Shown piece after piece: positions 15,584 to 46,130 of a stretch of 51,190 nt of DNA; within the stretch, counting starts at the first letter, position 1; each line of letters begins with the position of its first letter. Below the pieces are notes generated by a model. It was not told the DNA's origin and ran no database searches. It was given only the letters and a program-made list of their open reading frames with translations. The translations under genes and the position numbers were made by a program. The DNA comes from Oscillospiraceae bacterium (GTDB lineage: Bacteria > Bacillota > Clostridia > Oscillospirales > Acutalibacteraceae): assembly GCA_028706415.1 (NCBI GenBank), contig JAQWBK010000001.1, forward strand, positions 1 through 51,190. The letters run 5' to 3'.

Positions 15584-15676
15584 TAACCATCAAACCTTAA
15601 GTTATATTTAGAATTATAGAAAATTCATCTGCATTTCAGTGAAGCAAGGCAAGAGCGATGCCCTTGCCTTGATTTT

Positions 15677-16726: not shown

Positions 16727-16860
16727 TTTAAATGCTCATCCTTTTACTTGCTTCATTAAATAGGTCTAGGTAGCCTTTGCCATCCACCGGTGTATCTTCC
16801 TGCTTTGAGTAAACCAAATTACAACTCTAAAAGTACCCATTTTGAGTAATATAATCTCTA

Positions 16861-26556: not shown

Positions 26557-28770
26557 CTATATCCCAGATACCGTATAGCCGCCCGCTTTAACCGTAATAC
26601 CCCTTTCCGAAAAATCTCGATTTCCATAATTAACATAAATCTTTACTCCACCGGAGAATATCGTTTCACGCACATCTTGTGTAATGACCCGATGGGAAAC
26701 AATCTGCTGTGCTGCCACGGTATTAAGCACATCTTTTATTTCAACATATTTTTCAGCGGCTTCCTCCGCCCAGTCGTCAAAAAGAGAGCTTATGATATCG
26801 TTGTTCGGGGTGGATTCAAGACGATTGCAATTTTTCATAATAAAGTGGTATTTTATGCCGATTCCAGATTCAAACGCCTTTAAAACACCTTGTTGCGGAT
26901 CGCTCATGGTGTTAATGGCCGGTGTGCTCATTGCGACTCTCCCATGCAGCGCAATCTGATAAAACGGAACGGTATATGTCTCAACCATATAACCACTGCT
27001 GTATATCGGGGTATCGGTAATATGGTCTGCGTATTCGACCGCATAGGCATTAGGCTCTGATAAAAGCTGCTTTTCCTTTGCGTCCTTTAGCCCCCTCAGA
27101 ATAGACTGAATTTCCTTGTCTGCCGTATCCCGCTTTACCGTTTTGCCGCTGAAATCTGAATATACCTTCTGCCCCAGGGTATTTGCGCTTACGCCTGTGA
27201 AGTCATATTTATCTGCTGCATCCGCAACCTTACCGGCAGCTTGTTTAATTTTAATGAAATTTAAAAGGAATTGAGGTTCGGTCAGTATGGCTTTCAGGTC
27301 ATTGATTCTGTATGCGTATTGCAGCGCCGGACTCCTCTGAATTGATGATGCGGAATCAAATCTTGTATTGAATCCCCAGCGGCTTTTTACCATATCTGTG
27401 AAATTGAAATCTAAATATATTTCGGTTCCGTTTTGCTTTAAAAAGTTAAGCATGTTTTTAAAGCTTTTCTTACCACCCAGCCTGCCTTCGGGTTTAATTC
27501 CGTTGGGTATGGCGGCACCTGTCCCGTCTTTGTTCCAATAGACATAATCTATGGCCAACTTGTCAGCACCCAATGAAGCCAGCCGCTTTGTCATCTCCTG
27601 CACATCCGAATATGTCGACAAAGGTACCACACGGTTCACAGGAAAACCCAAGAAGCTTTCTCGTGCCATAATGCCGCCCATAATTTCCATATACAGCGGC
27701 ACAGCGGATACCGAACTTTTCTGCTCACCCAACAGCCATTCTCCAAACCGATGAGCCATACCTACATAATTTGCATCCTTCCCCTCAAGGAAAAAGTAGC
27801 GAATGCGATATCTCCCGGGCTTTGGCGGGTTTTGCTCCAGTACCCGAACCGTCTGTGCTTTCTTTTCGATAAGCACCATATCCGAATCGCGATATATAAA
27901 CTCCATATAAGCGTTGTTGTAACTGCATCGTTTACCGTTGACCGATGCGTTTGCGATTGCTCGTCCGGCGCCGTCGGTTATTATACCCATCATGGCATGG
28001 TCTGCGTTTTTAATCCCGAACACCGGCATACGCACCGTTTCGGCCATCACATCATGCTGAATTCTTGTGGTTGAGTATTCTCTGCCGTATACATATTGAC
28101 TGTAATCTTCGATAAAGCGGTCGGGGCGGTTCATCTCAATTATTGCTCCGCTTCCATCCGGAACAAATATATACCCCTCGGCTTGACTGCCGGCTGCGCC
28201 GAAGTAAGGCATAACCGACACCGTTGTAAGCTTATAGACTTCCTCGGACTCGGTGATATCCTTTGCAATTATGGATACATCAACATAATCCTCTGCGAGC
28301 ACAATCTCGATTGGGATAGAAAAGCCCTCTCTCGGGAAGGCAAATGTAAGAAGAGCCCCGTTTGCAATCTTTTTACAAGTCAGCCCGCCTTTTTTAACCG
28401 AGGCTGTCTTTGCGTTGATGGGGTTTACATTCCCCAGCCTGTCTGAGTATTTCACCTGAATGAGAGACTCCATGGCCAGCCTGGTGCCCCCCTGAGCCAA
28501 GGGATCTTCCATATGGTTATCGGGCACGCTTTTCCAAGTTGTTCCCTCTTTATCCTGCAAAATAAGGAAACCTTGTTCTTCATTGATATAAAGCATAAAC
28601 CGACCGTTCTCGGCATAAAGCTGGTATCCGTCCAAAGCCTGCGCGCTCTCACCCTGATTATTTGCAGTGGTATATATCTGTGTCTGCGCTGCGGCATTTG
28701 GAATTATTAAGGTGATTCCCGCAGCAAATACAACAGCAAGCATAAGTCTATACAGTCTTTTCATATTCAT
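26557..28770 (-). CDS. Secreted DUF5696-like protein (candidate glycan-active enzyme, function unknown)
   Basis: I moved the start to ATG 28770 (MNMKRLYRL...) because AGGAG lies 7 nt upstream. The track ORF extends to 28863. The signal peptide ends in NAAAQ. The DUF5696 assignment is from memory of similar proteins next to Yip1-type and large solute-binding-protein genes. Confidence 0.6.
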   Translation of the reverse strand: MNMKRLYRLMLAVVFAAGITLIIPNAAAQTQIYTTANNQGESAQALDGYQLYAENGRFMLYINEEQGFLILQDKEGTTWKSVPDNHMEDPLAQGGTRLAMESLIQVKYSDRLGNVNPINAKTASVKKGGLTCKKIANGALLTFAFPREGFSIPIEIVLAEDYVDVSIIAKDITESEEVYKLTTVSVMPYFGAAGSQAEGYIFVPDGSGAIIEMNRPDRFIEDYSQYVYGREYSTTRIQHDVMAETVRMPVFGIKNADHAMMGIITDGAGRAIANASVNGKRCSYNNAYMEFIYRDSDMVLIEKKAQTVRVLEQNPPKPGRYRIRYFFLEGKDANYVGMAHRFGEWLLGEQKSSVSAVPLYMEIMGGIMARESFLGFPVNRVVPLSTYSDVQEMTKRLASLGADKLAIDYVYWNKDGTGAAIPNGIKPEGRLGGKKSFKNMLNFLKQNGTEIYLDFNFTDMVKSRWGFNTRFDSASSIQRSPALQYAYRINDLKAILTEPQFLLNFIKIKQAAGKVADAADKYDFTGVSANTLGQKVYSDFSGKTVKRDTADKEIQSILRGLKDAKEKQLLSEPNAYAVEYADHITDTPIYSSGYMVETYTVPFYQIALHGRVAMSTPAINTMSDPQQGVLKAFESGIGIKYHFIMKNCNRLESTPNNDIISSLFDDWAEEAAEKYVEIKDVLNTVAAQQIVSHRVITQDVRETIFSGGVKIYVNYGNRDFSERGITVKAGGYTVSGI

Positions 28771-28878
28771 ATAAATGCTCCTGCGCTGAGGCTTTTGCAA
28801 ATGCATGAATGAAAGATTGCACCGGCTTGCACCTGCCTGTGTGTATTTTTTATGCTCTTTCACACTATCAGCTCCTTC

Positions 28879-30951
28879 CTACATCATCTTGAGCTCGGCG
28901 TAAATGCTTCCTATAAATTCGAGAAGCTGTGATAATATGTTATAGCTTAAGGCGCATATCAACAATATTACCAGCATTCCCGCAAGCGTAAGTATGGTCG
29001 TCCATATTGTCCTTCCTAATGAATACATATGAACTTCCTTAATCGCCATAATAAGCCCTATTGCGGTCCATGCATATACAATAAACCGCGCCATCGAAAT
29101 AAAGGATGCTTCGTTTGTGGTGAGGACATTGCTCATAATTACTACCACAACCGTACCAATGATATAAGGTAGCAGCGCATATGAGCAGTAGTTCCATATT
29201 TCCTTCAGTCTGCCCTTTCCCTCCTGAATCGTGGTGATTGACCAGTTGCAGATGGTAAAGGCTGCGAAAAATCCAATTGTAGAAAGTAGGGAGAACATTA
29301 AATTAAATTTATCCGTGCGATTATAATTAAAAGCAAAGCCTGTCAGCTGCCGCTCGATTATCGAAACAATAAAATACGCCAGCAGCAGAACGTTTGCGGC
29401 TAAGACCGAATCCTTTTTCCGTTCTTTAAGATCTGTATAACCGATAAACGGATGAAGCATGCAGTAAACGGGATAATGAAACCGCCCGATCTTCACATCA
29501 TAAACGCTCTTTTTGTTTCTTCGGCGCAATATAACTATAATGACAGGAGCTACAACAGACAGGATAATCCCAAGCATGAACACCAGAAAATTATGTCTCA
29601 AAATATCTCCGCGGTATTCACTGAACGCTTCAGAATACAGCTCCCGTTCAAAGGCGACTTTATAAAATTTGGCTGCCTTTTTGAAATCGCCCATGCCCTC
29701 ATATGCCTTGCCCAGTCCCCTGTTGGCAAGCTCATATAAATTATCCTGCTTTAAAACTGCGCCCCACGGTTCCATAGCTTGTCGGTATTTGCCATCGTCA
29801 CAAAGGAGAACCGCCTTCCTGACATTTTTTGCGAAATCGGTTGGTGTAAATAATGTTATTAGCCCTGTCTGCCCATCCAAAAGCAGCAGCTTATCGCCCA
29901 GCGATTCTACCGCAACCGGATTTTGTGTAAGCCCATTCTGTATCCCCTTTCCTCCGAACGCAAACATGAGATTGCTCTCCCCATCATACTGAAAAAGCCT
30001 TCCACTTCTGCTGTCCAGAACCGTGATAAATCCATCCGCATCCACCGCAATGTCGGCAAGCATGGTTTCGGTGCCGCGGTCGCCGAACACCTTCTCAGGT
30101 ATGACATTTTCGCCCAGGGCATTCAGCTTCTTTACCTGCCCCTGGGTCACATCGTTCCCTTTTCGTACTGTGTAAATAAAGTTGTTTTTATCCACCGTAA
30201 AGCTGACAAACTCCACCGGAACGGTTCGTTTCATATTGGCAGCCTGTTTATCGGTCAAAATCTGTTTCCAAAAATAATCTGCAAGTGTATCGGCGGTAAG
30301 GGTTATCTTTTCGCTTCCGTAAAAGCCTAGGAAAACCCCTCTTTCGTCATATTGAAGAGCCCCCTGATAACAGTTTGCCGAAACAACATAATAGATGCCC
30401 GCTGAGTCCATAATTGCTTTTACCGGTGCAAAGAAGAAATCCTTGGGCAATATATTGCTGTTTGGTGACTTTAGAGTGTCGATCAGCTTTAAACTCAAAT
30501 CGAATATCAGAACACCGGCTTTTTTGTCGGCGATCACAATTTTTTTATGCTGGTTGCTGACAAAAATGCTGATGGGTTCCATCATGCTCATGGGCTTGCC
30601 GTCCGATTCCATCGGCCCCAGCTCTTTTAAAAGCTTCATATCCCTGTCCATCACCAGAACCCGATTGTTTCCGGAGTCAAGAACATAAATTTCATTATCC
30701 GGGGTGGAGAAAATATCCGTAGGTGATTTCAAAGCGCCTGCGCCAATCGTTATCCCTGAAACAGTACGCTCGGGCAGGTATGTTTGGGCAGTGGGGACAG
30801 AACTCCCCCAATGATCATAGCGGTAACTGTAATATGGTGCTTCGCTCGTTAGGGCACCTGCGCTAAACGAACCCAGCATACCAACAATTAATGTGGCAGC
30901 CAGAAACGTGATTAGTTTTTTTGTTGAGATTTTCACCATACCGGCTACCAT
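28879..30951 (-). CDS. Membrane protein: signal peptide, NHL-repeat beta-propeller, TPR-like segment and a C-terminal Yip1-type multi-TM domain
   Basis: NHL-like repeats are present (IYVLDSGNNRVLVMD, ITVLDSRSGRLFQYD). A TPR-like helix pair reads GLGKAYEGMGDFKKAAKFYK. A TM helix and about five further helices at the C-terminus are typical of Yip1-family domains. Confidence 0.65.
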   Translation of the reverse strand: MVAGMVKISTKKLITFLAATLIVGMLGSFSAGALTSEAPYYSYRYDHWGSSVPTAQTYLPERTVSGITIGAGALKSPTDIFSTPDNEIYVLDSGNNRVLVMDRDMKLLKELGPMESDGKPMSMMEPISIFVSNQHKKIVIADKKAGVLIFDLSLKLIDTLKSPNSNILPKDFFFAPVKAIMDSAGIYYVVSANCYQGALQYDERGVFLGFYGSEKITLTADTLADYFWKQILTDKQAANMKRTVPVEFVSFTVDKNNFIYTVRKGNDVTQGQVKKLNALGENVIPEKVFGDRGTETMLADIAVDADGFITVLDSRSGRLFQYDGESNLMFAFGGKGIQNGLTQNPVAVESLGDKLLLLDGQTGLITLFTPTDFAKNVRKAVLLCDDGKYRQAMEPWGAVLKQDNLYELANRGLGKAYEGMGDFKKAAKFYKVAFERELYSEAFSEYRGDILRHNFLVFMLGIILSVVAPVIIVILRRRNKKSVYDVKIGRFHYPVYCMLHPFIGYTDLKERKKDSVLAANVLLLAYFIVSIIERQLTGFAFNYNRTDKFNLMFSLLSTIGFFAAFTICNWSITTIQEGKGRLKEIWNYCSYALLPYIIGTVVVVIMSNVLTTNEASFISMARFIVYAWTAIGLIMAIKEVHMYSLGRTIWTTILTLAGMLVILLICALSYNILSQLLEFIGSIYAELKMM

Positions 30952-30970
30952 TCCTTTCAGTTTAACTTGA

Positions 30971-31819
30971 TCATTTCAATCCCGAGGTACTCATGGTTTC
31001 AATTATTCTGCTCTGGGAGAATATAAACAGCAAAATAGGCGGTATCATCAATATCAGCGCTGCCGCTGCAGTCGCACCTGTTCTTGTGACACCTCCGGCT
31101 GCAATGGTTGTCATAACAGAAGGGAGTGTCTTGAGCTCCTCCTTGAAAACCAATGCGCCGCTGCCGCTGTTCCAAAGCCCCTGAAAAGAAAATATCATCA
31201 GGGTCAACCATGCAGGCTTGACATTAGGCATTACCACGGTCCAGAAAATGCGTGCTTCCTTTGCCCCGTCTATTCGGGCAGCTTCCAACATCTCTTCCGG
31301 TATCTTCTGCATGAAATTCATCATCAGATACAGCCCCAGCGAGCTTTGCAAAGCAGGTAAAATCAGCGCCCAGTATGTATTGATAGCGCCTATTCCGGAC
31401 AAAATCACATACTGCGGAATATATGTCACCGATGCAGTAAAAAGCAAGGACAACACAATGATTTTGGTTAGTACCTTCTGCCCGTAAAAATTGTGTTTTG
31501 CCAAGGGGTAGGCGGCCATACTGGCAAGCACTATATGCCCGAATGTTCCGGCAATGGTTATAAAAACACTGTTAAATATATATCGTGACAGCGGCACCCA
31601 AAAATCACTGACCAAATAGTTAAGTTGAATGAAATTGTTAAAGGTCGGCTTACGCACAAAAAGGCGGGGAGGGAATATAAAAATTTCATTAAAAGGCTTA
31701 AATGCTGTACTTATAGCATAAACAATGGGCAGCATGAAAAACACACTGAACAACAGCAAGAATAGAAATACAGTTGCCGTACCGACCAAAGAACGTCCCG
31801 GACGTGGTTTCATATACAA
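30971..31819 (-). CDS. Carbohydrate ABC transporter permease (MalG-like, central module)
   Basis: The EAA loop is EEMLEAARIDGAKEARIFWTVVMPNVKP. The predicted six-TM layout fits the family. Confidence 0.9.
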   Translation of the reverse strand: MYMKPRPGRSLVGTATVFLFLLLFSVFFMLPIVYAISTAFKPFNEIFIFPPRLFVRKPTFNNFIQLNYLVSDFWVPLSRYIFNSVFITIAGTFGHIVLASMAAYPLAKHNFYGQKVLTKIIVLSLLFTASVTYIPQYVILSGIGAINTYWALILPALQSSLGLYLMMNFMQKIPEEMLEAARIDGAKEARIFWTVVMPNVKPAWLTLMIFSFQGLWNSGSGALVFKEELKTLPSVMTTIAAGGVTRTGATAAAALILMIPPILLFIFSQSRIIETMSTSGLK

Positions 31820-31903
31820 AACCGTGCCTTTCCGTGTCTATACCCTTTTTAATCGTGAAAAAGAGGACACAAAATTATTTGAAGTAGGTGGATTTATTCC
31901 TGT

Positions 31904-32875
31904 TCAATCTGTGCTGAATTTTCTTAATGCACCGGTTATAATAAAGTTGGTCAAAAACATAAGGGCGAACAAAAATACTGCAATGGTGCAGGCATATCCC
32001 ATTTCGAAACGAGTTGTGCCAATGTCCATAATGTATGTGACAACCGTATCCGCACTGTATTGGGTGGTAGGAAAGCCCGCCAAAAACACGATAACCGTGC
32101 TTACACCGAAGGATGCCGCAATCTGCATGACTGCACTGAACAACAGCTGATTTGACATTGAGGGGATGGTTATATACCACAGCTCCTGACTGCGGTTGCG
32201 TACGCTGTCGATGGCTCCGGCTTCAAAGAGGCTTCTATCCATACTCTGAAATCCTGCTATAAAAGCCAGAAAGCCTGTCCCTAAGCTCATCCAAAGCTGC
32301 ACCACCACAAGCGAAGGCATAATCATATTCTGATCAATAAGCCATCCGATCGGCTCTTTTATAATGTTCATCTGAATAAGAAACCCGTTTACGACACCAT
32401 AGCTGTCGCTTGAAAAGAGGAACGCCCATACAAAATATATGTTTCCTGCTAGAACGGGTATATAGAATAGCACCGTCAAAACCGTTCTTAATGCCCTGCC
32501 GGTCTCGTTTATCAGCCATGCAAACAAAAATGAGAGTATGTAACTGATGGGGCCGGTTATAAAGGCAAAAACTATTGTATTTTTAACGACCTTAAAGAAA
32601 ATCGGGTCGTCCAGCAGCATTCGCTGATAATTTTGCAGCCCGATGAAGCGCGGAATCTCCAGCATATTAAAGCTGGTAAAGCTTAGCCCGATGGCGGACA
32701 GCATCGGTAAAATCGTAAGCAGAGCAAAGATTAGCATAAACGGAGCAAGCAAAATATAACTTTCCCGGCTTCTTTTAATCTTTTCCCAAACGGTGAAATC
32801 AACATTTTTCTCGAGTTTGTTTTTCAATAATACCATCATCCTTTCCCGCGCCATTAAACCCCCGGCAAAACGCAA
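31904..32875 (-). CDS. Sugar ABC transporter permease (MalF-like, central module)
   Basis: The EAA loop is RSLFEAGAIDSVRNRSQELWYITIPS and there are multiple TM helices. The true start may be one of the internal Met codons near the N-terminus. Confidence 0.88.
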   Translation of the reverse strand: MRFAGGLMARERMMVLLKNKLEKNVDFTVWEKIKRSRESYILLAPFMLIFALLTILPMLSAIGLSFTSFNMLEIPRFIGLQNYQRMLLDDPIFFKVVKNTIVFAFITGPISYILSFLFAWLINETGRALRTVLTVLFYIPVLAGNIYFVWAFLFSSDSYGVVNGFLIQMNIIKEPIGWLIDQNMIMPSLVVVQLWMSLGTGFLAFIAGFQSMDRSLFEAGAIDSVRNRSQELWYITIPSMSNQLLFSAVMQIAASFGVSTVIVFLAGFPTTQYSADTVVTYIMDIGTTRFEMGYACTIAVFLFALMFLTNFIITGALRKFSTD

Positions 32876-32955
32876 ATCTATAAAGATTAAAACTTGAACA
32901 GCGTACCAAGTAATCCGTTAAAAGTATTCTCACAAATAAAAATTTGTATCCATTT

Positions 32956-35859
32956 TTATTTTAGCAATCCAAGTTCACGGCGTTTTCTGGTGATTTCCCT
33001 GTTAATGTTACGGTTTTCCTTTTCAAAAATTTCACGAGGATTATCTCCATCGAATATCACTGCACGAAATGCATTGTCAATGCTTCTGGACACATAATAG
33101 CTGCCCGGGATTTCCGGAAGTTCGAACACGCTTTCACGCTGCTTTGACAGAAGCTCCAGCTCGCTGTCAGACCATGGCAGCCTTGAAAATGCGTCTAAAT
33201 TTGCTGTTGTGTATCTTCCTACAGGCCCAAGTATATTCTCAAGAGTAGAGCCGTAGTTATATTGAATATCGTTGCTGGTCCACCAGTCGACAAATTTATA
33301 ACAGCTCTCAGGATTATCGGCTTTTTTGAAGATGACAACCGCCGTTCCCGCTCCCGCCTCTGAGCGATTGATGCTTCCATCCTTCATCCGCGTTCCGGGT
33401 ACCTGCGCCATCCCCCACACTCCGCGTATCTCTTCGGCACCTAATGAAATTGTATTGAACATTTCGTAGGATGCTATGCCAATTGGCATTTCTCCGGATT
33501 TAAAGCGGGTATAGAAATCATATGCAAGATCAAATCCGTATTTGGTATAGAAGTCACACCATGATTTAAACGCGTTTACCGCTGCTTCACTGTCAAGTGC
33601 GGTAGCAGTGTAATCGTCCTTATAAAACGACCCTCCGTTTTGAAGCAAAAGGGTAGCATATAGATCCTTTGCTCCAAGGCCGTTATCCACAGCGGTAGCC
33701 GCAGAAATTACCGAATACGGCAGACCGATGATCATGTGGCTGCGTTGCAGCTTTGGCACTGCTTCAAAAATATCATCCCATGTTTCGGGCAGTTTGATAT
33801 TCAGCTGCGCCAGAATATCCTTACGGTAAAACATCATGTAAAAGGTTTGTGTTAGCGGTATGCCGTATATTTTCCCGTTAAGCTGATATGGCAACATTGC
33901 AGTGTCGGCAAAACGCGGTTTCATATCCTCAAACTCCGAATAACCCTCAAAGTCCAGCAGAGCACTCCGGCTTGCCAGATTAACAGGCTGTCCCCGGGCG
34001 ATACCTATTGCCACATCGGGGCCTTTCCCTGCAAGGCTGGCTTCAATAAATCCGGTCTGCACCACACTGAGATTAACGTCAACATCAGTTTTTGGTGTGA
34101 AATCATCGGTGATCAGATTTTTTATCACCTGGATATGGTCTCGGCCGACATTGGCCCAAACATCTATCGAACCGCCTTTGACTGTTTTGTTTCCGACCGT
34201 ATTGTAATCCTCAAAAAAGGATGCCAAGAAGGTATCAATAAAATGTTTCAAAACCGCAAATAAGCCTGCCTTTGGTGAAGGCAACTTACTATCCGCCGAA
34301 TGTATCATAAAGTAATCCATTTCAAGCGGCTGCTCGGTCATATTATTGAGCCAACCCGACAGGCTGCTTATTCCATCACGATAGCTTGATATCCTAAGGG
34401 GGATCGAGTTGGGATCCTTGATAAAACTATCAAGACGCCGTGCCATCGCTCGTATGGATTCGCTCTCACTTGATTTTTCGCCGCTCAACTTATCAAACAA
34501 ATCTGCAGCTTCGTGAAGATTATTTGCCTGCGTCTTGAAGGAATCAAGCAGGCCCGGAATCTCCTTATCAAGATAATAATCCCTGTATTTGTCGGGGTTT
34601 GTGCCTGTGATCATAACCATTTGCGTATAAAGGCGGTTAAGCTGATAATTTGCTTCATCCACCACCTGCAGAACCTCTGTATACTTGCCGGTACTTACCT
34701 CATATTTTATTAAGTTTCTCCCTTTATTCAGGTAAAACGGTACCGGCTTCACTTTTTCATCCGATATGGTTTTTATATTCCAGCTGATCCCATATGAAAA
34801 GTTAACATTTTCATACGCCACGCTTGGGATTTCTCCATTTATATAAATGTTTCGGAAAACCGTAACATCCACCGCGTCACTCTGTCGATATTTAACCGTA
34901 AGGTAATACAGCCCGTCTTTTGGTATGTTGTCTACCTCATATGAAAGCCACATACCGTTTTCCGACCAGTTTTGACGGCCTATGGTGTTACGGCTGATTC
35001 GGGTTGGGCTGTATGGCTCGGTGGCCGGACTGTTTCTGTCATAGATTGGGTATAAAGTAACATCCGATTTTTCAAATGCTTTTTCAGCTTGATATTTCTC
35101 CAAAAATGAGGGAACCTCAATATATGCGAGTCTTTTATAATATGCCGCAGCCTGTTCTATATCGGGTACGACCTTTTTCACTGCCAACGTAATACCGCCC
35201 ACCAAAAGGATTTCCTGCTTGCATTCTATACGCAGGGAATGCTCTCCTTTTTTTATATAAAGGCACAGCGCTTCACCCGATAGCCCTGAGGTATCACCAA
35301 GCTCGGTCTCCTGCCAGCGAGCATCCTCTATCTGTTCGGGTATTAAGTCATTACCTCGGCTATCCTTCTTAATTTCTGTTTTATCCTTGTATACACGACT
35401 AAGCGCATATCCGCTTAGCTCGTTATAAGGTGTTTCGCCGTCATAAGTTATGTCTATAAGCGGTTTATTGCCTTTAACATGCCCCGCCTTATATTCAAGA
35501 CTAAGAATATATACAGCGTTTTCTTCGGATTCGAATTTCCATTCTATCCACCCGCCAGAGCTTAGCTGAACCCCTTGCTTGCCTTTATCATCCTTCACTC
35601 TTTTAGAGTTTTCAACAGAAATTTGAGCTTCCGACTCGGGAAGAATGATCGGCTCGTTTGCATATTGATTATTTTTAATGATCTCAAGATATTGAACAAA
35701 GCTGTTTTCCCGCCCACTGTAATCGATAACCTCATCCTTTGTATCTTGATTTACACTATTATCCGATACCTGTGCCACTATATTGGGTTGAAAAAGAGTG
35801 GATATCATTATTAAAGACAATATTGCCGCTACCGTTCTTTTCCTTTTATTCGGCTTCAT
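32956..35859 (-). CDS. Giant (967-aa) extracellular solute-binding protein with N-terminal CBM-like domains
   Basis: The signal peptide has no lipobox Cys. The N-terminal half has two galactose-binding-like segments (GGWIEWKFESEENAVYILSLEYK; GMWLSYEVDNIPKDGLYYLTVKYR). The C-terminal ~430 aa look like a sugar solute-binding domain. Confidence 0.8.
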   Translation of the reverse strand: MKPNKRKRTVAAILSLIMISTLFQPNIVAQVSDNSVNQDTKDEVIDYSGRENSFVQYLEIIKNNQYANEPIILPESEAQISVENSKRVKDDKGKQGVQLSSGGWIEWKFESEENAVYILSLEYKAGHVKGNKPLIDITYDGETPYNELSGYALSRVYKDKTEIKKDSRGNDLIPEQIEDARWQETELGDTSGLSGEALCLYIKKGEHSLRIECKQEILLVGGITLAVKKVVPDIEQAAAYYKRLAYIEVPSFLEKYQAEKAFEKSDVTLYPIYDRNSPATEPYSPTRISRNTIGRQNWSENGMWLSYEVDNIPKDGLYYLTVKYRQSDAVDVTVFRNIYINGEIPSVAYENVNFSYGISWNIKTISDEKVKPVPFYLNKGRNLIKYEVSTGKYTEVLQVVDEANYQLNRLYTQMVMITGTNPDKYRDYYLDKEIPGLLDSFKTQANNLHEAADLFDKLSGEKSSESESIRAMARRLDSFIKDPNSIPLRISSYRDGISSLSGWLNNMTEQPLEMDYFMIHSADSKLPSPKAGLFAVLKHFIDTFLASFFEDYNTVGNKTVKGGSIDVWANVGRDHIQVIKNLITDDFTPKTDVDVNLSVVQTGFIEASLAGKGPDVAIGIARGQPVNLASRSALLDFEGYSEFEDMKPRFADTAMLPYQLNGKIYGIPLTQTFYMMFYRKDILAQLNIKLPETWDDIFEAVPKLQRSHMIIGLPYSVISAATAVDNGLGAKDLYATLLLQNGGSFYKDDYTATALDSEAAVNAFKSWCDFYTKYGFDLAYDFYTRFKSGEMPIGIASYEMFNTISLGAEEIRGVWGMAQVPGTRMKDGSINRSEAGAGTAVVIFKKADNPESCYKFVDWWTSNDIQYNYGSTLENILGPVGRYTTANLDAFSRLPWSDSELELLSKQRESVFELPEIPGSYYVSRSIDNAFRAVIFDGDNPREIFEKENRNINREITRKRRELGLLK

Positions 35860-36064: not shown

Positions 36065-36098
36065 TAAAAAACTGCCGGTTGAAAAATACAACCAGCAG
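36065..36098 (-). terminator. Intrinsic terminator of the AraC gene
   Basis: On the minus-strand RNA, CUGCUGGUUG-UAUUUUU-CAACCGGCAG forms a 10-bp stem with one G:U. It is followed by UUUUUUAU and lies 12 nt beyond the stop codon. Confidence 0.7.
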
Positions 36099-36109: not shown

Positions 36110-37024
36110 TTATAATGACTCCGCTTCATTTTTCAGAATACGCTTTCTGTATTCGACAGGAGCGCATCCCATGGAACGCCTGAACATCTTGTAAAAGCTC
36201 TGTACCGTCTCATAATTTAAGACTTCAGCGATTTGAGTAATGCTGTTGCGCTCATCCTTGAGCAACTCTTTGCTAACTTCAATTTTTTTATTATTAATGT
36301 ACTGCTGCAGCGTTATCCCCATCTTCGCCCGAAATAGATGGGATATATATGACGGACTATAACATAAGTCTGTGGCAATATCTTTTATACTCTTAATATT
36401 TAAAATATTATTATCTACATATCGAATAACAGAATAGGTGGTATGTCCAACAATCAGTTTTACCTTTGCTTCCTCAACCGACTGATGATAATTATCTGCA
36501 CCTTCCATCCTAAATATTCTGTATATATGTATCAGAATTTGATTGACATAAGAGTTTATCATGATTTTATTAAGTAATTGCTTGGCATAGATCTCACTCA
36601 AAAGCTGATTGAAATAGGTGCGTGTGTGATTTTTGTCATTAAGCAGAAAAAGCTGGGGATTGTTATAGAATTCCAGTATCTCATTTATGCCGCTTTTTTT
36701 GGCTTCGGGCTTGAAATTGAACCCGATATAAGTATATCTGAGTTGCTCATCCTTATCGGCCAGAATTTTATGAACGCTTCCTTTGGGTATTATATGAATA
36801 TCCCCTTGTGAAGCTTCCATTGCCTTGCCGTTTGTGAAAAATGTGCACCTTCCGGACACAATATAACTAATCTCATTGCATATCTGGGTATGTGCCATTA
36901 CCTCATATCCAGATTCCACAACCAGCTCGCCTGTCTGAACAACATCAACATAGTCCAATGAGATTGGATCCTCAAACCAGTTTTCAAAATGATAGGTTTT
37001 CCCCAGAACCTCCTCTTCGTACAA
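36110..37024 (-). CDS. AraC-family transcriptional regulator (cupin sensor plus dual HTH)
   Basis: The N-terminal region is cupin-like (GDIHIIPKGSVHKI). The C-terminal AraC HTH region reads IKDIATDLCYSPSYISHLFRAKMG...IAEVLNYETVQSFYKMFRRSMGCAPVEYR. Confidence 0.9.
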   Translation of the reverse strand: MYEEEVLGKTYHFENWFEDPISLDYVDVVQTGELVVESGYEVMAHTQICNEISYIVSGRCTFFTNGKAMEASQGDIHIIPKGSVHKILADKDEQLRYTYIGFNFKPEAKKSGINEILEFYNNPQLFLLNDKNHTRTYFNQLLSEIYAKQLLNKIMINSYVNQILIHIYRIFRMEGADNYHQSVEEAKVKLIVGHTTYSVIRYVDNNILNIKSIKDIATDLCYSPSYISHLFRAKMGITLQQYINNKKIEVSKELLKDERNSITQIAEVLNYETVQSFYKMFRRSMGCAPVEYRKRILKNEAESL

Positions 37025-37163: not shown

Positions 37164-38120
37164 ATGTTTAACTACAAAGGGCTAGTCATATATCAGGATG
37201 AGATCTCCTCTTATTGGAACGGTTTATTATTAAAGTCAGATTTGAATTTGATCGGCATCCATCCCGTCGGAGGTTTAACCGGAGGAAGGGCTGTTGATGA
37301 GGCAATCGAGAACATTAAACGACCGGAGACGCAAGCTCTTTTAAACGAGCTGAAAAGCCATAACATTAATATCGAATATGAAATGCATGCACTTTCATGG
37401 CTGCTGCCCCGGGAATTATTTCAAACACACCCCGATTGGTTCAGGATGAACGACCGGCAGGAGCGGGTTAACGATTATAATCTATGTCCGTCCAACAAGG
37501 ACGCCCTTGATTATGTATCTCAAAGAGCAGCAATCCTTGCAAATATTTTCACACCTACTACCAACCGTTATCATTTCTGGCTGGACGATCATACCGATTC
37601 TAAATGCCGCTGTCATGAATGCACTAAATTGACCGCCTCGGATTCGTCCCTTTTGGTTTACAATGCCATTCTTAAGGGAATTAAAACCGTAAACCCGTTA
37701 GCAAGTCAGTGTTATTTAGCATACCATGATACATTAATTCAGCCGTCTTGTGTGGAACCTGAGCCAGGAATTTTTTTGGAATATGCCCCGATGAACAGGG
37801 ATTTAAATATTCCTTTATCCGACAAGAGTTCCGTTAAAAATGCAGGTCAGATCAAGCCGCTGGATGACCTTTTGGGCTTTTTCGGTACTAAAAACGCCAA
37901 AGCGCTGGACTACTGGCTGGACAATTCATACTTTTCCGAATGGGAAAAGCCTATGAAATATTTTACGCTTAACAAAGATGTTGTCAAAAGGGATGCTGAA
38001 TTTTACCGAAACAAGGGCTTTGATACCGCTACCTGCTTTGCTTGTTTTCTGGGAGAAGAATATTATAACCTGTATAATGAATTCCCGAATATCCAATCTT
38101 ACTGTGACGCAATTAGATAG
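37164..38120 (+). CDS. Short (318-aa) DUF4838-like protein, catalytic-core-only paralogue, cytoplasmic
   Basis: It aligns by eye with the core of the four long paralogues (HALSWLLPRELFQTHPDWF ... CPSN ... WLDDHTDSKCRCHEC ... YLAYH). It lacks their N-terminal domain and the C-terminal IPWVQG/LRWPLWYV region. Confidence 0.65.
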   Translation: MFNYKGLVIYQDEISSYWNGLLLKSDLNLIGIHPVGGLTGGRAVDEAIENIKRPETQALLNELKSHNINIEYEMHALSWLLPRELFQTHPDWFRMNDRQERVNDYNLCPSNKDALDYVSQRAAILANIFTPTTNRYHFWLDDHTDSKCRCHECTKLTASDSSLLVYNAILKGIKTVNPLASQCYLAYHDTLIQPSCVEPEPGIFLEYAPMNRDLNIPLSDKSSVKNAGQIKPLDDLLGFFGTKNAKALDYWLDNSYFSEWEKPMKYFTLNKDVVKRDAEFYRNKGFDTATCFACFLGEEYYNLYNEFPNIQSYCDAIR

Positions 38121-38172
38121 GTTGTTTTCTATTATAGCATATTAGTAACTAAAAAGACCTGAATATTTCTGT

Positions 38173-38206
38173 AATCAGTCGTATATTTTTATTCGGCTGA
38201 TTTTCA
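38173..38206 (+). terminator. Candidate terminator after the short DUF4838-like gene
   Basis: AATCAGTCG (38173-38181) and CGGCTGATT (38194-38202) pair at 8 of 9 positions. The loop is 12 nt and A/T-rich, and TTTTC follows. Confidence 0.4.
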
Positions 38207-38254
38207 TTATGCTTAATTTTTAATTGTTTTGGTTGTCATGTTTTGTGGTAATGG

Positions 38255-38369
38255 TTGCGAATATATGCTTTCTATTATTTGTGCTATTGTAGTTTTCGCT
38301 ATTGGATGCTATGATTGAATTGCATTTATAGTATACAATAATTTGTGATATTTGCGATAATATATATGC
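38255..38369. promoter_or_regulatory. AT-rich 300-bp regulatory spacer with direct repeats TTGCGAATATATGC / TTGCGATAATATATATGC
   Basis: The repeats sit at 38255-38268 and 38352-38369, upstream of the plus-strand operon that starts at 38422. They resemble TCGCAAATATGC at 36033-36043. Confidence 0.3.
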
Positions 38370-38421
38370 AAATTTACGGAATTGGTATTGGAGCTATCAT
38401 CATGCTTTAGGGGGTTGTTTT

Positions 38422-40089
38422 ATGGTGGGAAACAGAAATCCTGTCTATTCCGATATGGTTATTGTTCAGGATGGTCACCCCTATGCAACCATTGTTGTGG
38501 CGCAGAATCCTTCATCAAAGGTTTTAAAAGCTGCCGAAGATCTACAAGATATGATTAAGCGCATATCAGGCGCCACGCTTCCAATATCTGATGACCGCCT
38601 GACAGGAGTGGGAAACAGAATCCTGGTCGGGGAATCAAGAGAAACTATCGATATGGGCTTTTTGCAACCGCACGGTTATCCCGACAATGAGCGGGTGATC
38701 TTATGGCGGGACGGTGAAAAGCTGGTTCTCATGGGAAATGACGATGAGGTGTTCACAGGTACGCAGTTTGCTGTAACCATGCTGCTCGAAAGGCTTGGTT
38801 GCGGGTGGTACGGCATTGACGAGCTATGGCAGGTCATCCCTAAGAAAGATAACCTTTGTGTCGGATATTTACATATAGATCATACACCGGCTTTCAGCTC
38901 CCGCCGGAACTGGGTTCTGAGAACAAATCGCGAACTGAGTCTGCGATGGTATCTCGGAGGCAGCGAAAAAGAAATCGAACACGCATACTGGCGGCTGTTC
39001 CCGCGTGAAATATATTTTGAACAACACCCCCAGTGGTACTGTCTGATTGACGGCGTTCGGAATCCTTTTATTGAATGGTGGCAGATGTGCTATTCAAACC
39101 CTGAAGTTGTACAACAAACGATCGAAAAAATTGACAGGTTTATTATTGATAACCCAACCTATACCCAGGCTACTCTTTCGGCAAACGATGGCTTTTTCGA
39201 AGGCTTTTGCGAGTGTGAAGAATGCCGAAAAATGGGTACGCCCGGAGAAACAATGGTTAGGTTTGTCAATCAGGTTGCTGAAGGCCTTGAAAAATCGCAT
39301 CCTGATAAGCACCTCATGATTTTTATCTATTTCCCCACCTATGACCCGCCGAGAACAAAAATGCCGCTGCACAAAAATGTCATGCTGATGTTCTGTAAGG
39401 AGTCCTGTATGTTCCATTCCGTTGATACCGGACCGGACTGCGGATATCATATCCGGTATCAATATGAATTCGGGCATACCTTTTATGAGCTGCCCTGGCT
39501 GGAAAACGCTAAAAAGTGGATGGATATGACCGACTGCAAAAATGTTTCAATATGGGAGTGGTATTGCCCTGCTGCAGCTCTTCCGGTTTGGAAGGATATA
39601 CCGTGGGTGCAGGGCGATGTAGCCACCCGCAACCAACGCTGTTTTAAGGAACTGGGCGCTCAGTACATATATTACGATCAGGGACCGGTAGATGCGTATA
39701 ACGATACCCAGTCAAGCTATCCGCTACGGTGGCCGCTGTGGTATGTCGTGGCAAAAGGTATGTGGGACATGCATATAACAGCATCCGAAATTATTATGGA
39801 AGCCTGCAAAAAACTTTTTGAAGAAGCTGCCGATCTCATGTTCTCTTATTACAGCTGCCTTGCAGATATCAATGAAAGCTGTGACGCAAAGGCAATTGCG
39901 TGGCATATGCCCGAGCCCTATGAATTTTATACTCCCGAGGCTATATCAAGGGTTGACAGAATCGTCAATTTGGGTGAAAGCATCCTCCCCCAGGTATCAA
40001 AAACCGTGCGGCTCAGAATGGAAAACCAATTTTCGCTTTGGCGTAAAGCAAATGAAGTCATTCAGGAAACCAAGCCCGGTGATAAATAA
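38422..40089 (+). CDS. DUF4838-like putative glycosidase, cytoplasmic form (right arm)
   Basis: It is a paralogue of 18747..20426. Motifs are LGCGWYGIDELW, HPQWY, ANDGFFEGFCECEEC, IPWVQGDVATRN and LRWPLWYV. There is no signal peptide. A GGGGG RBS lies 8 nt upstream. Confidence 0.8.
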   Translation: MVGNRNPVYSDMVIVQDGHPYATIVVAQNPSSKVLKAAEDLQDMIKRISGATLPISDDRLTGVGNRILVGESRETIDMGFLQPHGYPDNERVILWRDGEKLVLMGNDDEVFTGTQFAVTMLLERLGCGWYGIDELWQVIPKKDNLCVGYLHIDHTPAFSSRRNWVLRTNRELSLRWYLGGSEKEIEHAYWRLFPREIYFEQHPQWYCLIDGVRNPFIEWWQMCYSNPEVVQQTIEKIDRFIIDNPTYTQATLSANDGFFEGFCECEECRKMGTPGETMVRFVNQVAEGLEKSHPDKHLMIFIYFPTYDPPRTKMPLHKNVMLMFCKESCMFHSVDTGPDCGYHIRYQYEFGHTFYELPWLENAKKWMDMTDCKNVSIWEWYCPAAALPVWKDIPWVQGDVATRNQRCFKELGAQYIYYDQGPVDAYNDTQSSYPLRWPLWYVVAKGMWDMHITASEIIMEACKKLFEEAADLMFSYYSCLADINESCDAKAIAWHMPEPYEFYTPEAISRVDRIVNLGESILPQVSKTVRLRMENQFSLWRKANEVIQETKPGDK

Positions 40090-40114: not shown

Positions 40115-42094
40115 ATGATGGATTTAACCTTTAAAAACTTGTCTCTTAAAAGCGCAAATCTTAACCGGGAAAGTGCATTTCCTTCAATAATACCGGTTAT
40201 AAATGTTCAAACAGAAAAGTCCGTTTCTTTGGATGAGGAAGATGAGATATTTTTTGATATAGGGAAAATCCGGAGTATTTACCCTTATAACCAGCAGGAT
40301 CTGTATGACCGCTCCCTTGAAGATCGTAAGTATAAAGCCGCGGTTCTTGAAAACAATTACCTGAAAGCGATTTTCTTGCCCGAGCTTGGCGGAAGACTAT
40401 GGTCGCTGTATGACAAAATTTCCGGAAGGGAGCTTTTGTATTTAAACGACAGTATAAGATTTTGCAATCTGGCGCTCCGCAACGCATGGTTCAGCGGCGG
40501 CGTTGAATGGAACATTGGGATGATCGGGCACACTCCGTTCACCTGCGAACCCTTATTCACTGCTCGTCTAAAAGCCTCTGATGGAACTCCGATACTGAGA
40601 ATGTATGAATATGAAAGGCTCCGCGGTGTCACCTATCAGATGGATTTCAGCCTGCCTGGGAATTCCCAAATGCTACTGTGCCGTATGCGGATATGCAATC
40701 TGCAAAACCGCACCATTCCCATGTATTGGTGGAGTAATATGGCCATCAGGGAACAAAAAGATGTTCGGGTTATAGTGCCCGCCGATTCGTCCTATTACAG
40801 CACCGGGAATACCATCAGCAAGACCACGGTACCCATACGAAAGGGACGAGATGTGTCATATCCTGTGAACACCGATAGCTCGATGGACTATTTTTACCGT
40901 ATTCCGGATGGGAAAAGAAATTACATCGCAGCGGTTGACCGGACAGGACAAGGAATGGTGCAAACCTCTACCCGCCGCCTAAGGGGAAGAAAGCTGTTCG
41001 TTTGGGGGCAGTGCCAAGGTGGGCATACTTGGCAGCGCTTTTTGACTGATAAAGCGGGTGATTATGCAGAAATCCAGGCAGGGCTTGGGCGCACTCAGTA
41101 TGAATGTATCCCCATGCCGCCGCTCAGCGCATGGGAGTGGGTCGAAGGTTATGGCGCACTTAACGCCAATCCCAGTGCCGTACACGGTGACTGGGACACA
41201 GCTCAAATCGAAGTGGAAAACAGACTTAATGAGATTGCTACCGAAAAGTGGTTTGATGATTATTTGAAATCCTCATTAAAGGATTACACCCTAAAAAAAG
41301 GAGAGGTCATTCAATACGGCTCGGGTTTCGGAGCTCTTGAAAGCCTAAGAAGATTAAAGTCGGGGGAGAAATTTCCCGATCACCTTGATTTCGGAAAACC
41401 GGATGAAAAACAGCAGCATTGGTTGCAGCTACTCGAAACCGGAAAGCTTCCCAGCCCTAACCCCAAAGAAAGCCCTCCTTCTTATATGCTCGACGATAAA
41501 TGGTTTGAATTATTAAAAGAAAGCTGTAAAAATGATGCGACCAACTGGTACGCCCATTATCATATCGGTATGTTCCTTATCGGACGCGGTGATTATCTTA
41601 ATGCCGCGCGGAGTCTTGAAACATCTTGGTCAATACAGCCGTCATGCTGGATCAGCTATGGGCTGGCGGCCTGCTGTTATGCAGACGGTGACCTTGAAAA
41701 CGCAGTCAAACATATACTGGATGCACTGAAGTTTAATCCGGATGATGTATCTCTTGCAAGGGACTGTTTTAGATTTATGTATGAGGCCGATATGTTTGGT
41801 GAAATACAGGAGTGCTATAAAAATATTTCTGTCTCCCTCCAACAGGACGGCAAACTTAAATTCTACCTTGCCGTCGCCTATGCGAAAATGGGTGAGTTGG
41901 AAAAAGCAGAGTCACTGCTATATGAAAATGGTGGTTTGATAATCCCCGTCATTCGGGAAGGCGAGGTTTCGCTTACATCTCTATGGTTTTTCATTGAAGA
42001 GCAGAAACACATAAAGCGCGGCGAGATTTTTGATGCAAATATTCAGCCTCCCGAATTTTTAGATTACCGTACTGCTGTTAAAAATGAAACTTAA
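40115..42094 (+). CDS. DUF5107-like domain protein with C-terminal TPR repeats (cytoplasmic, function unknown)
   Basis: The N-terminal ~400 aa carry NAWFSGGVEWNIGMIGHTP and RKLFVWGQCQGGHTWQRFL, which I remember as DUF5107-type patterns. The C-terminal part is TPR-like (WYAHYHIGMFLIGRGDYLNAARSLE, KFYLAVAYAKMGELEKAE). Confidence 0.55.
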   Translation: MMDLTFKNLSLKSANLNRESAFPSIIPVINVQTEKSVSLDEEDEIFFDIGKIRSIYPYNQQDLYDRSLEDRKYKAAVLENNYLKAIFLPELGGRLWSLYDKISGRELLYLNDSIRFCNLALRNAWFSGGVEWNIGMIGHTPFTCEPLFTARLKASDGTPILRMYEYERLRGVTYQMDFSLPGNSQMLLCRMRICNLQNRTIPMYWWSNMAIREQKDVRVIVPADSSYYSTGNTISKTTVPIRKGRDVSYPVNTDSSMDYFYRIPDGKRNYIAAVDRTGQGMVQTSTRRLRGRKLFVWGQCQGGHTWQRFLTDKAGDYAEIQAGLGRTQYECIPMPPLSAWEWVEGYGALNANPSAVHGDWDTAQIEVENRLNEIATEKWFDDYLKSSLKDYTLKKGEVIQYGSGFGALESLRRLKSGEKFPDHLDFGKPDEKQQHWLQLLETGKLPSPNPKESPPSYMLDDKWFELLKESCKNDATNWYAHYHIGMFLIGRGDYLNAARSLETSWSIQPSCWISYGLAACCYADGDLENAVKHILDALKFNPDDVSLARDCFRFMYEADMFGEIQECYKNISVSLQQDGKLKFYLAVAYAKMGELEKAESLLYENGGLIIPVIREGEVSLTSLWFFIEEQKHIKRGEIFDANIQPPEFLDYRTAVKNET

Positions 42095-42113: not shown

Positions 42114-43004
42114 TTGCTACGTGGCTTGAAATTTCATTTTAATAATGAATATTCATGTGAACCTGTGAGATGCGGTTCCATTCTTATGTGGCAAATCGGC
42201 GACATCGGTTGTGACCCCGGCTATGTAGTAAAGGATCACGAGCAATGTTGCTATGAAATCACCTGCGTTGTGGGTGGCCGCGGCTCAATATCCCGAAATG
42301 ACAAATTTTACGACATTCATAAAGGGCAGCTTTTTTTGAACCGTTGCGGGGAAATACATTGTATAAAATCGGATGTAATGGAGCCTATCCGCTACTTTTA
42401 CCTTGGATTTGATTTTGATAAAAAACTAACACAAGGAATATGGAAGGATATTAAGGACGCTTTTGACGAATGCGAAAACCCGCTGGCCAATGATATATCC
42501 GATGTTCACAATATCTTTTCAAGCGTTTTTAACGAAATGATGACCAATGACACGGCATCCCAGAAAATGATTGAATATTCCGTTTATCAAATACTTTTGC
42601 TCTCATACCGCGCTCTTATGCTGAAAAATCCCCGCCGTTACATATCGGGAGAGCCCATGGAGCAGTCGCGACAGCTGATTTATTCGATCATCGTCTATAT
42701 TGACACAAATATTTGTGCAATAGAGCATCTGAACGATGTTAGCAAACAGGTCGGATACAGCTATACCTATATATCCAGACTCTTCACAAAGGTTGTAGGT
42801 AAATCCCTCAGGAATTATTACAATGAAAAAAGATTTGAAAAGGCCGTTGGCTTTCTGGCGTCCGGAATGAAAAGCACGCAGGTCGCCACTCTACTTAATT
42901 ATAAATCTCTGCATAGCTTCAGCAAAGCCTTCAGTAATTATTACGGTATGTCACCTACCCAATACAAGGAAAAAGTTTTAAACAAAAATAAGGACAATTG
43001 TTAA
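42114..43004 (+). CDS. AraC-family transcriptional regulator (cupin sensor plus dual HTH)
   Basis: The TTG start has GGGGGTG upstream. The cupin-like part reads KGQLFLNRCGEIHCI. The AraC HTH reads LNDVSKQVGYSYTYISRLFTKVVG...VATLLNYKSLHSFSKAFSNYYGMSPTQYK. Confidence 0.88.
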   Translation: MLRGLKFHFNNEYSCEPVRCGSILMWQIGDIGCDPGYVVKDHEQCCYEITCVVGGRGSISRNDKFYDIHKGQLFLNRCGEIHCIKSDVMEPIRYFYLGFDFDKKLTQGIWKDIKDAFDECENPLANDISDVHNIFSSVFNEMMTNDTASQKMIEYSVYQILLLSYRALMLKNPRRYISGEPMEQSRQLIYSIIVYIDTNICAIEHLNDVSKQVGYSYTYISRLFTKVVGKSLRNYYNEKRFEKAVGFLASGMKSTQVATLLNYKSLHSFSKAFSNYYGMSPTQYKEKVLNKNKDNC

Positions 43005-44982: not shown

Positions 44983-45033
44983 GTGGCCACTTTAAAACAC
45001 CGCTTTTAGGAAATAGCCGGATAAATTTAAGGG

Positions 45034-46077: not shown

Positions 46078-46130
46078 TTTGCTCGGTCTTGGCGTTGATC
46101 TTATCATTTTGTTATGAAAGGAACTTATTG

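Follow-up and report, generated by a model that had tools for sequence, protein, structure and literature searches.

A Constant NHL/TPR/Yip1–DUF5696 Gene Pair in a CUT1-Type Glycan-Utilization Locus of Clostridia, Paenibacillus and Acholeplasmataceae

Introduction

What are a propeller-bearing membrane protein and a secreted protein of family DUF5696 doing among the genes of a sugar importer? The question is raised by a locus on contig JAQWBK010000001.1 of an Oscillospiraceae bacterium (assembly GCA_028706415.1), of which a stretch of 51,190 nt was analyzed, here called the window; gene coordinates below are window positions unless another locus is named. The question bears on a wider one. Compared with the Sus systems of Bacteroidota, glycan uptake by Gram-positive bacteria of the gut and soil is much more poorly understood, and its loci have no recognized signature genes beyond an ATP-binding cassette (ABC) transporter, a glycosidase and a regulator. 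We conclude that the cassette is a CUT1-type Gram-positive polysaccharide-utilization locus (PUL) with two constant accessory proteins, so far undescribed, and that the proteins of this module probably act on complex carbohydrates at the cell surface.

An earlier note on this DNA had described five co-directional genes between 26557 and 35859, separated by 15–108 bp. This layout held up: five long open reading frames (ORFs) fill the interval, all on the minus strand, with intergenic gaps of ~15–116 bp when the starts best supported by Shine-Dalgarno sequences are used. Their length, strong family matches and conserved synteny place the five ORFs far beyond chance. In the direction of reading, they encode a secreted solute-binding protein of 967 residues (the large binding protein, 32956–35859), a MalF/UgpA-like permease with a BPD_transp_1 domain (permease 1, 31904–32839, from a likely ATG at 32839 in an ORF that reaches 32875), a MalG/UgpE-like permease with the same domain (permease 2, 30971–31813, in an ORF that reaches 31819), an NHL/TPR/Yip1 membrane protein of 690 residues (28879–30951, or 686 residues if the ATG at 30939 is used), and a secreted DUF5696 protein (26557–28770), which has 737 residues from the ATG at 28770 or 768 from a GTG at 28863. 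Together they make up the leading section of a long glycan-utilization operon that runs on the minus strand from ~35859 to at least 16861. Directly after the DUF5696 gene comes a further MalF/UgpA-like permease (permease 3, 25571–26542, minus strand), and its MalG-like partner (permease 4, 21812–22834, minus strand) follows further downstream.

The cluster thus holds two complete MalF-/MalG-like permease pairs together with a sugar-binding protein of cluster B/D, as expected of CUT1 importers. That it encodes importers is concluded from the BPD_transp_1 domains of its permeases, from the presence of binding proteins and from its catabolic context. An ABC_tran domain, which would mark the ATP-binding subunit, was not found in any ORF of the window. 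Firmicutes that share an MsmK or MsmX ATPase typically have no ATPase gene in the cluster.

Conservation of the Module

To see how the module is kept in other bacteria, we compared 112 related loci, which belong to Clostridia, to Paenibacillus and to Acholeplasmataceae. A genome scan anchored on the NHL/Yip1 protein, using an alignment of seven sequences, yielded 27 loci, all from metagenome-assembled genomes (MAGs) of uncultured Ruminococcaceae, Oscillospiraceae and Clostridia, with up to three hit loci in one MAG assembly. Independently of this, metagenomes were scanned with the DUF5696 motif GYxFxPDGSG as the anchor, which returned 550 relatives, and 80 loci were retained. The earlier note had proposed that the genes be sought together in other genomes, and their co-occurrence does hold over the 112 loci, down to an identity of ~28–31% in the Yip1 protein. 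The synteny described below persists at 25–31% identity. The module was found in Oscillospiraceae and Ruminococcaceae MAGs, in Paenibacillus and in Acholeplasmataceae, and wherever the source of a module protein was named, the organism belonged to the Bacillota or the Acholeplasmataceae.

In the 27 genome-scan loci, where the contig suffices, the gene order is AraC regulator, large binding protein, permease 1, permease 2, NHL/Yip1, DUF5696 and permease 3, continuing with (0–3 copies of orf333), (orf481), permease 4, a small binding protein and DUF4838. The Yip1 gene is directly upstream of DUF5696 in 90/91 cases and a permease-3-type gene directly downstream of DUF5696 in 80/80, with permease 4 within the next few genes downstream in 79/80. 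The large binding protein is encoded upstream of NHL/Yip1 in 58 of the 65 loci whose flanking sequence is long enough. A chance gene neighborhood was considered as an explanation and rejected on the synteny of the first two of these counts.

Several loci depart from this order, and such variants reveal which genes are dispensable. Four loci (L097, L077, L081 and L103) have neither the large binding protein nor permeases 1 and 2, L095 has this binding protein without the two permeases, and the large-binding-protein unit of L106 and L109 is placed downstream. Locus L026 has no small binding protein and no other glycosidase in the operon. Judged by gene content across the loci, the conserved core comprises the NHL/TPR/Yip1 and DUF5696 proteins, permeases 3 and 4, and one or more binding proteins; the unit of large binding protein, permease 1 and permease 2 appears to be a frequent second importer added to it. 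The interval 26557–35859, which had been taken as the limits of the module, is too narrow, since permeases 3 and 4 belong to the conserved block.

A comparison of distance matrices (mirror-tree) over 53 complete loci, made without a significance test, separated a block of large binding protein, permease 1 and permease 2 from a block of NHL/TPR, Yip1, DUF5696, permease 3 and permease 4. When the permease distance was removed, NHL/TPR correlated best with DUF5696, at 0.35 versus 0.19–0.24 for the large binding protein. The DUF5696 protein is the fastest-evolving part of the module, with a mean distance of 1.57, and in the large binding protein the N-terminal half is also among the fastest; this is what would be expected of parts that contact the substrate.

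Some individual loci show further peculiarities. Locus L097, whose module has no large binding protein, has four tandem genes for 434-residue binding proteins after permease 4 (13711–19514), and upstream of its module are genes for a 996-residue Laminin_G_3 protein and a glycoside hydrolase family 130 (GH130) enzyme. A second DUF5696 gene, encoding 903 residues, is found at 18275–20983 of L105 and is the only DUF5696 gene without a Yip1 gene directly upstream. In L067 the whole cassette is present with every gene split into several frames, and it represents either a decayed module or a poor assembly.

The NHL/TPR/Yip1 Membrane Protein

The 690-residue protein had been described earlier as a fusion of NHL, TPR and Yip1 parts, and each of these was recovered. 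Pfam matched Yip1 (PF04893) at 45.2 bits (gathering cut-off 28.6 bits) over residues 498–664, corresponding to profile positions 4–171 of 173, and NHL at 33.8 bits, with one repeat above the cut-off of 20 bits. In a search of PDB sequences, the NHL domains of Thin and TRIM71 matched two regions of the protein (E 3e-10 to 9e-9), and consensus-TPR structures matched residues 386–439. Hydropathy gives the order signal peptide, ~420 extracellular residues, a transmembrane (TM) helix, a basic loop (RRRNKK) and five TM segments (514–667). Because of this layout, the propeller and the TPR segment are predicted to lie outside the cell. Taken together, these matches and the hydropathy profile delimit an NHL beta-propeller at residues ~60–375 (29827–30774, minus strand), a TPR segment at residues ~380–450, a TM anchor helix at residues 456–474 (29530–29586, minus strand), and the five-TM Yip1 domain at residues 498–664 (28960–29460, minus strand).

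The Yip1 part has invariant residues in its cytoplasmic loops (HP and GxG), with the HP in the basic loop. The NHL/TPR and Yip1 parts are fused in 51 loci and are split into adjacent genes in 28, and in the split form the NHL/TPR protein retains a C-terminal TM anchor and a basic tail of its own. Fission with kept adjacency argues that NHL/TPR and Yip1 are one functional membrane unit. Among database sequences, this architecture is common: the best 150 representatives (50% identity clusters) all had E<1e-190, and nearly all of them are ~700 residues long and match over their full length, with a few giant proteins of multiple NHL repeats among them. The database names carried by module proteins are “YIP1 family protein”, “hypothetical protein” and “DUF5696 domain-containing protein”.

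The DUF5696 Protein

The protein that had been called DUF5696-like is a true member of that family, as it matches PF18952 at 560.9 bits (E 4.8e-168; cut-off 25.6 bits) over profile positions 4–612 of 612. In a structure model built with 45 homologues, with a predicted local distance difference test score (pLDDT) of 88.9 and a predicted template-modelling score of 0.88, a (beta/alpha)8 barrel stands between two beta-sandwiches, one N-terminal and one C-terminal. When this model was compared with the PDB by Foldseek, the top match was DagB (5opq), a GH129-like 3,6-anhydro-D-galactosidase, with an E value of 1e-35; NagBb (5wzn) matched at 1e-28, and GH101, GH36 and GH31 enzymes followed. The GH129 and GH129-like entries had E values of 1e-35 to 1e-27, template-modelling scores of ~0.6–0.7 and identities of 13–14%. 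At the level of sequence, a single-sequence search of PDB sequences gave no match, and the DUF5696 family profile found NagBb (E 4.6e-11) and DagB (E 4e-9), its alignment to NagBb being confined to the N-domain, the first strands of the barrel and the C-domain. The modelled fold indicates that DUF5696 is a distant relative of the GH129/GH101-type alpha-glycosidases, and the family is placed in a GH129/GH101-like glycosidase fold by the present analysis.

Of the two reference enzymes, only the nucleophile Asp (NagBb D435, equivalent to DagB D486) is reported to be common to both (Ficko-Blean et al., PMC5698469). The candidate nucleophile of the window protein is D539 (in YSDF; 27154–27156), which was placed by interpolation between aligned flanks. 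In 105 DUF5696 sequences, this position is D in 86 and E in 2. Other residues are near-invariant, namely D205 in the PDGSG motif of the N-domain (28156–28158), E634, N620 and R547. The general acid/base Glu of NagBb is E478, and DagB is also without that Glu. At positions 571/572, 582 and 586 of DUF5696, less than half of the relatives have an acidic residue, although E572, D582 and D586 are present in the window protein. For the window copy, glycosidase activity is plausible; as the conserved role of the family, catalysis is not established.

The Large Binding Protein and Its Anchoring

Pfam matches of the large binding protein to SBP_bac_8 and SBP_bac_1 are limited to residues 578–869 of its 967. 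Its AlphaFold model (40 homologues, pLDDT 88.6) has an N-terminal helix, a disordered linker, two beta-sandwiches (residues ~64–226, 35182–35670; and residues ~253–389, 34693–35103), a helical domain (residues 391–549), and a MalE-like oligosaccharide-binding domain (residues 564–962, 32974–34170), all on the minus strand; the last is also identified by matches to oligosaccharide-binding proteins. A Foldseek search with the full model matched the binding domain only, and none of the N-terminal domains. The earlier note had seen two segments resembling carbohydrate-binding modules (CBMs) in this protein. Two sandwiches are indeed modelled; on the other hand, the window protein has no CBM match in Pfam and the two sandwiches have no mutual sequence similarity. 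Among 40 homologues, CBM_35 was matched in seven and CBM_6 in one, in the first sandwich only and at scores little above the cut-off, two of them just clearing it. The sandwiches may plausibly be CBM-like.

The N-terminus of the protein, MKPNKRKRTVAAILSLIMISTLFQPNIVAQ, is a signal peptide without any Cys, so it has no lipobox, just as had been claimed. This holds beyond the window: a loose lipobox match was found in at most 3/40 and 5/67 homologues, most of which have canonical AxA cleavage sites, and the absence of a lipobox is a family trait. The DUF5696 protein and the large binding protein mostly have a cleavable signal peptide and neither a lipobox, nor a C-terminal TM segment, nor an LPXTG motif. 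A separate observation concerns L031, a locus of the wall-less Acholeplasmataceae, where at 10001–19448 the large binding protein and the DUF5696 protein have long N-terminal hydrophobic segments without AxA; their counterparts in walled Clostridia have cleavable signal peptides.

Flanking Enzymes and Substrate

The enzymes encoded beside the module vary by locus and include DUF4838, GH43, GH144-like, NamZ, GH2/PcRGLX, GH130 and GH36 proteins. In Paenibacillus pasadenensis the module is beside GH43, with GH10 nearby, and in Acholeplasmataceae the core is accompanied by NamZ and amidase genes. One further lineage has the core with PF10091 glucoamylase-like genes, other loci have it with GH2, PcRGLX and GDSL genes, and others again with beta-helix proteins and GH36. 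This variability of the flanking enzymes indicates that the core is generic.

In two kinds of beta-GlcNAc-cleaving enzyme, DUF4838 forms the catalytic domain: GH163, an endo-beta-GlcNAcase active on complex N-glycans, and GH185, a 6-sulfo-beta-GlcNAcase (PMC10570127). Five DUF4838 genes occur in the 51-kb window, two at 16861–20426 and the others at 37164–40089 and 47443–49311. Since its flanking enzymes are DUF4838 proteins of this GH163/GH185-like kind, the window copy of the module probably targets glycans that contain N-acetylhexosamine, e.g., N-glycans or other host glycans. One of the DUF4838 proteins in the window has a lipobox and at least one has no signal peptide; the gene at 37164–38120 encodes 318 residues with a partial domain match and may be a fragment.

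Function of the Module

We hypothesize that the NHL/TPR/Yip1 protein is a scaffold, in which a Yip1-anchored propeller keeps the GH129-like protein in place above an oligosaccharide importer, and likewise the large binding protein in modules that have one. We put the probability of this a little short of even. It is proposed because the NHL and TPR parts are membrane-bound interaction modules, because they undergo fusion and fission with Yip1, and because the gene order is fixed. The NHL propeller and TPR segment would stand outside the cell, held in the membrane by the TM helix and the five-helix Yip1 bundle, and the scaffold would keep the secreted DUF5696 protein and the anchorless large binding protein at the membrane above the CUT1-type importer. 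Glycan would be captured by the beta-sandwiches of the large binding protein and, in the window lineage, by the anchored orf333 and orf481 proteins as well. The DUF5696 protein would then trim or present the captured glycan, and the binding proteins would collect the products and hand them to the two permease pairs, with energy from an MsmK/MsmX-type ATPase that we assume is encoded elsewhere. The substrate would be set by the variable flanking enzymes.

The gene content, domain architecture, predicted topology, GH129-like fold, absence of anchors and strict synteny are what the loci and models display, and from there we infer physical contact between the module parts, catalysis by DUF5696 and the substrate. 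A number of observations weigh against the scaffold hypothesis. The mirror-tree comparison gives a weak signal. The Paenibacillus DUF5696 protein is a lipobox-bearing lipoprotein, and the Acholeplasmataceae DUF5696 and large binding proteins have signal-anchor-like N-termini; both lineages retain NHL/TPR/Yip1. With anchors of their own in some lineages, these proteins indicate that simple tethering cannot be the whole role of NHL/TPR/Yip1. Close paralogues of permease 4 and the small binding protein at 45034–47417 (67% and 63% identical) occur without Yip1 or DUF5696, which means that this transporter type has no strict need of either, and the idea that NHL/Yip1 is an obligate subunit of it was rejected for that reason. 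As to catalysis, a sub-profile of the DUF5696 catalytic region gave no alignment with GH129, so that relationship to the GH129 catalytic domain is not seen in sequence; in 19/105 relatives from several clades, S, N, H, Y, A or E stands in the place of D539; and the DUF5696 relatives have no conserved acid/base residue following strand 5 or strand 6.

The earlier note had suggested that the propeller/Yip1 protein tethers or hands over glycan, or the 967-residue binding protein, to permeases 1 and 2, while the DUF5696 protein acts as an extracellular depolymerase. The lack of a lipobox throughout the large-binding-protein family fits this, as does the position of its gene upstream of NHL/Yip1 in most loci. 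However, the partners that stay adjacent are permeases 3 and 4 rather than 1 and 2, and NHL/Yip1 and DUF5696 are kept in the four loci where the large binding protein and the first two permeases are missing, as well as in L095, which has that binding protein but not these permeases. Tethering of this kind does not hold as the conserved function. The depolymerase half of the suggestion is sustained by the glycosidase fold and by D539 being kept in the window copy, but it is undermined by the loss of the candidate nucleophile in the 19 relatives, by the want of a conserved acid/base, and by the fact that one DUF5696 family belongs to a constant core paired with enzymes for very different glycans. 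We regard the suggestion as a whole as unlikely. The two proteins might instead both be enzymes acting one after the other on a structural element that many glycans share, the propeller as a lactonase- or lyase-type enzyme and DUF5696 as an alpha-glycosidase, with Yip1 a mere anchor that makes no contact with a transporter. Some homologues do match SGL/gluconolactonase-type propeller models, with the IMG name “sugar lactone lactonase YvrE” on some, and all structural relatives of DUF5696 are alpha-glycosidases (GH129, GH101, GH36, GH31). Many of the glycans to which the flanking enzymes point contain alpha-linked side chains. Yet D313, D323 and D359, the acidic residues that are invariant in the propeller, are at standard positions of the NHL-repeat signature and no catalytic site is apparent. 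A single TM helix suffices to anchor the split form, so Yip1 is not required as an anchor, and its invariant cytoplasmic-loop residues suggest a role beyond anchoring. With the strict adjacency to permeases 3 and 4 also left without explanation, we find this pair of enzymes quite unlikely.

The DUF5696 protein could also be a pseudo-enzyme that binds glycan, like SusD or a surface glycan-binding protein, with NHL/TPR/Yip1 as an importer assembly factor, like YknW, and all hydrolysis done by the variable flanking enzymes. In this case, the replaced nucleophile would be accounted for, including in L018 and L020–L022, loci whose MAG assemblies gave further copies of the module as well, and so would the want of a conserved acid/base residue. 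Rapid evolution is expected of a ligand-contacting protein, and DUF5696 is part of the constant core, not of the variable enzyme set. Against this, the Asp is kept in 86/105 sequences, the window protein is acidic at 572, 582 and 586, the operon of L026 has no other glycosidase, and the GH129 catalytic residues are aligned by interpolation only. Of the explanations weighed, we consider a binding-only role the least probable.

If the scaffold hypothesis is extended to its widest form, the core would be the signature of a widespread glycan-uptake machine of monoderm bacteria, in which the scaffold physically links ABC importers to a surface GH129-like protein and to large binding proteins without lipidation, as a “selfish” device for capture, trimming and import, and bacterial Yip1 proteins would be general adaptors for the assembly of ABC transporters, both exporters and importers. 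This wider claim is possible but doubtful. The constant accessory pair, in fixed order across Clostridia, Paenibacillus and Acholeplasmataceae, would offer a signature by which to find and classify such loci, and the scaffold hypothesis is directly testable in the cultured Paenibacillus (P. oryzae, P. pasadenensis) that carry the module.

Other Genes of the Operon and Its Surroundings

Upstream of the operon, an AraC-family regulator with cupin/AraC_binding and HTH_18 domains (Pfam) is encoded at 36110–37024 on the minus strand, and most related loci likewise have an AraC homologue upstream of the module, with one adjoining it in 34/42 complete loci. Between this gene and the transport operon is an intrinsic-terminator-like hairpin of 10 pairs followed by a T-run (36072–36098, minus strand). 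Downstream of permease 3, also on the minus strand, are the surface-protein genes orf333 (24450–25451, or 24450–25430) and orf481 (22940–24385). After permease 4 come the small binding protein (20438–21739), a lipoprotein of 433 residues with the lipobox LIGC, and two DUF4838 genes (18747–20426 and 16861–18750), the second with a lipobox. Two GFO/IDH/MocA oxidoreductase genes are also downstream in the operon, on the same strand and with short gaps. NCBIfam returned nothing for the DUF5696 protein, orf333, orf481, the 433-residue binding protein or the DUF4838 proteins.

A domain of ~190 residues without a Pfam or NCBIfam match is common to three secreted proteins of the window, encoded at 24450–25451 (orf333), 22940–24385 (orf481, with two copies) and 44005–44982. 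Each combines a signal peptide and a Thr-rich linker with a TM anchor at the C-terminus. In related loci, homologues reach 850–1019 residues and occur in 0–3 copies between permeases 3 and 4. The orf333 gene is a lineage-specific insertion of 0–3 copies, and the proteins with the ~190-residue domain are candidates for a new surface glycan-binding module.

The gene at 44005–44982 begins a partial duplicate of the distal half of the operon (44005–49311, plus strand). It had been considered as a permease-3 paralogue, which was rejected, as it is unrelated to permease 3 and 47% identical to orf333. The duplicate further contains the paralogues of permease 4 (67%) and the small binding protein (63%) and a DUF4838 gene, and no MalF-like partner permease adjoins it. 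Its lone MalG-like permease may need permease 3 of the main operon as a partner. On the divergent arm beside the module are a DUF5107 and TPR protein (40115–42094, plus strand), a second AraC regulator (42114–43004) and a ROK-family protein (43060–43977). At 5669–12664 on the minus strand are AddA/AddB-type helicase-nuclease genes with a G+C content of 0.52–0.55, versus 0.38–0.48 for the remaining window.

Comparison with Known Systems

A Yip1-family protein beside an ABC transporter has a precedent, to which the earlier note rightly pointed: YknW modulates the assembly of the YknXYZ ABC transporter complex (PMC4887032). In the YknWXYZ system of Bacillus subtilis and B. amyloliquefaciens, as in the module, a Yip1-domain membrane protein is encoded with ABC-transporter genes. 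However, YknYZ is a MacB/FtsX-type exporter that works with a membrane-fusion protein in toxin resistance, whereas the module has BPD_transp_1 importer permeases and binding proteins, and its Yip1 part is fused or adjacent to an NHL/TPR ectodomain and paired with DUF5696. A YknWXYZ-like exporter was rejected as an interpretation of the locus, given the importer-type permeases and binding proteins and given that no MacB/FtsX protein, fusion protein or ABC ATPase is encoded in the window. The earlier note knew of no described Yip1 case for a sugar importer, and our literature search likewise found no paper linking Yip1 or NHL to sugar importers, nor any that mentions DUF5696 or PF18952. The module represents a second, independent context for bacterial Yip1 domains beside ABC transporters.

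With the GH129 and GH101 enzymes, such as the alpha-N-acetylgalactosaminidase NagBb (5wzn) and Zobellia DagB (5opq), the DUF5696 protein has in common a three-domain fold, and its candidate nucleophile Asp falls, by interpolation, at about the position of theirs. It differs from GH129 in its identity of 13–14%, in catalytic strands that do not align by sequence, in having no conserved acid/base, and in being encoded between a Yip1 gene and a permease gene. To our knowledge, there is no such gene link for GH129.

In overall plan the module resembles CUT1 importers of the MalEFGK2 type and Gram-positive PULs (PMC5320581). Like them, it has a MalE-like domain, MalF/MalG pairs, an AraC regulator and glycosidases, and its lack of an ATPase gene is typical of Firmicutes that share MsmK/MsmX. 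In contrast to these, the module has two permease pairs, a non-lipoprotein binding protein of 967 residues and two constant accessory proteins. To the Sus systems of Bacteroidota there is a functional analogy only, in that a constant core for capture and import is combined with variable enzymes and that the genome scan gave up to three hit loci per MAG assembly. The module has no TonB-dependent transporter, SusD or outer membrane, no SusC or SusD domains were found in the window, and its ABC importers are in the cytoplasmic membrane. If the proposal of a signature-core machine is true, that machine would be the functional analogue of SusCD in single-membrane bacteria.

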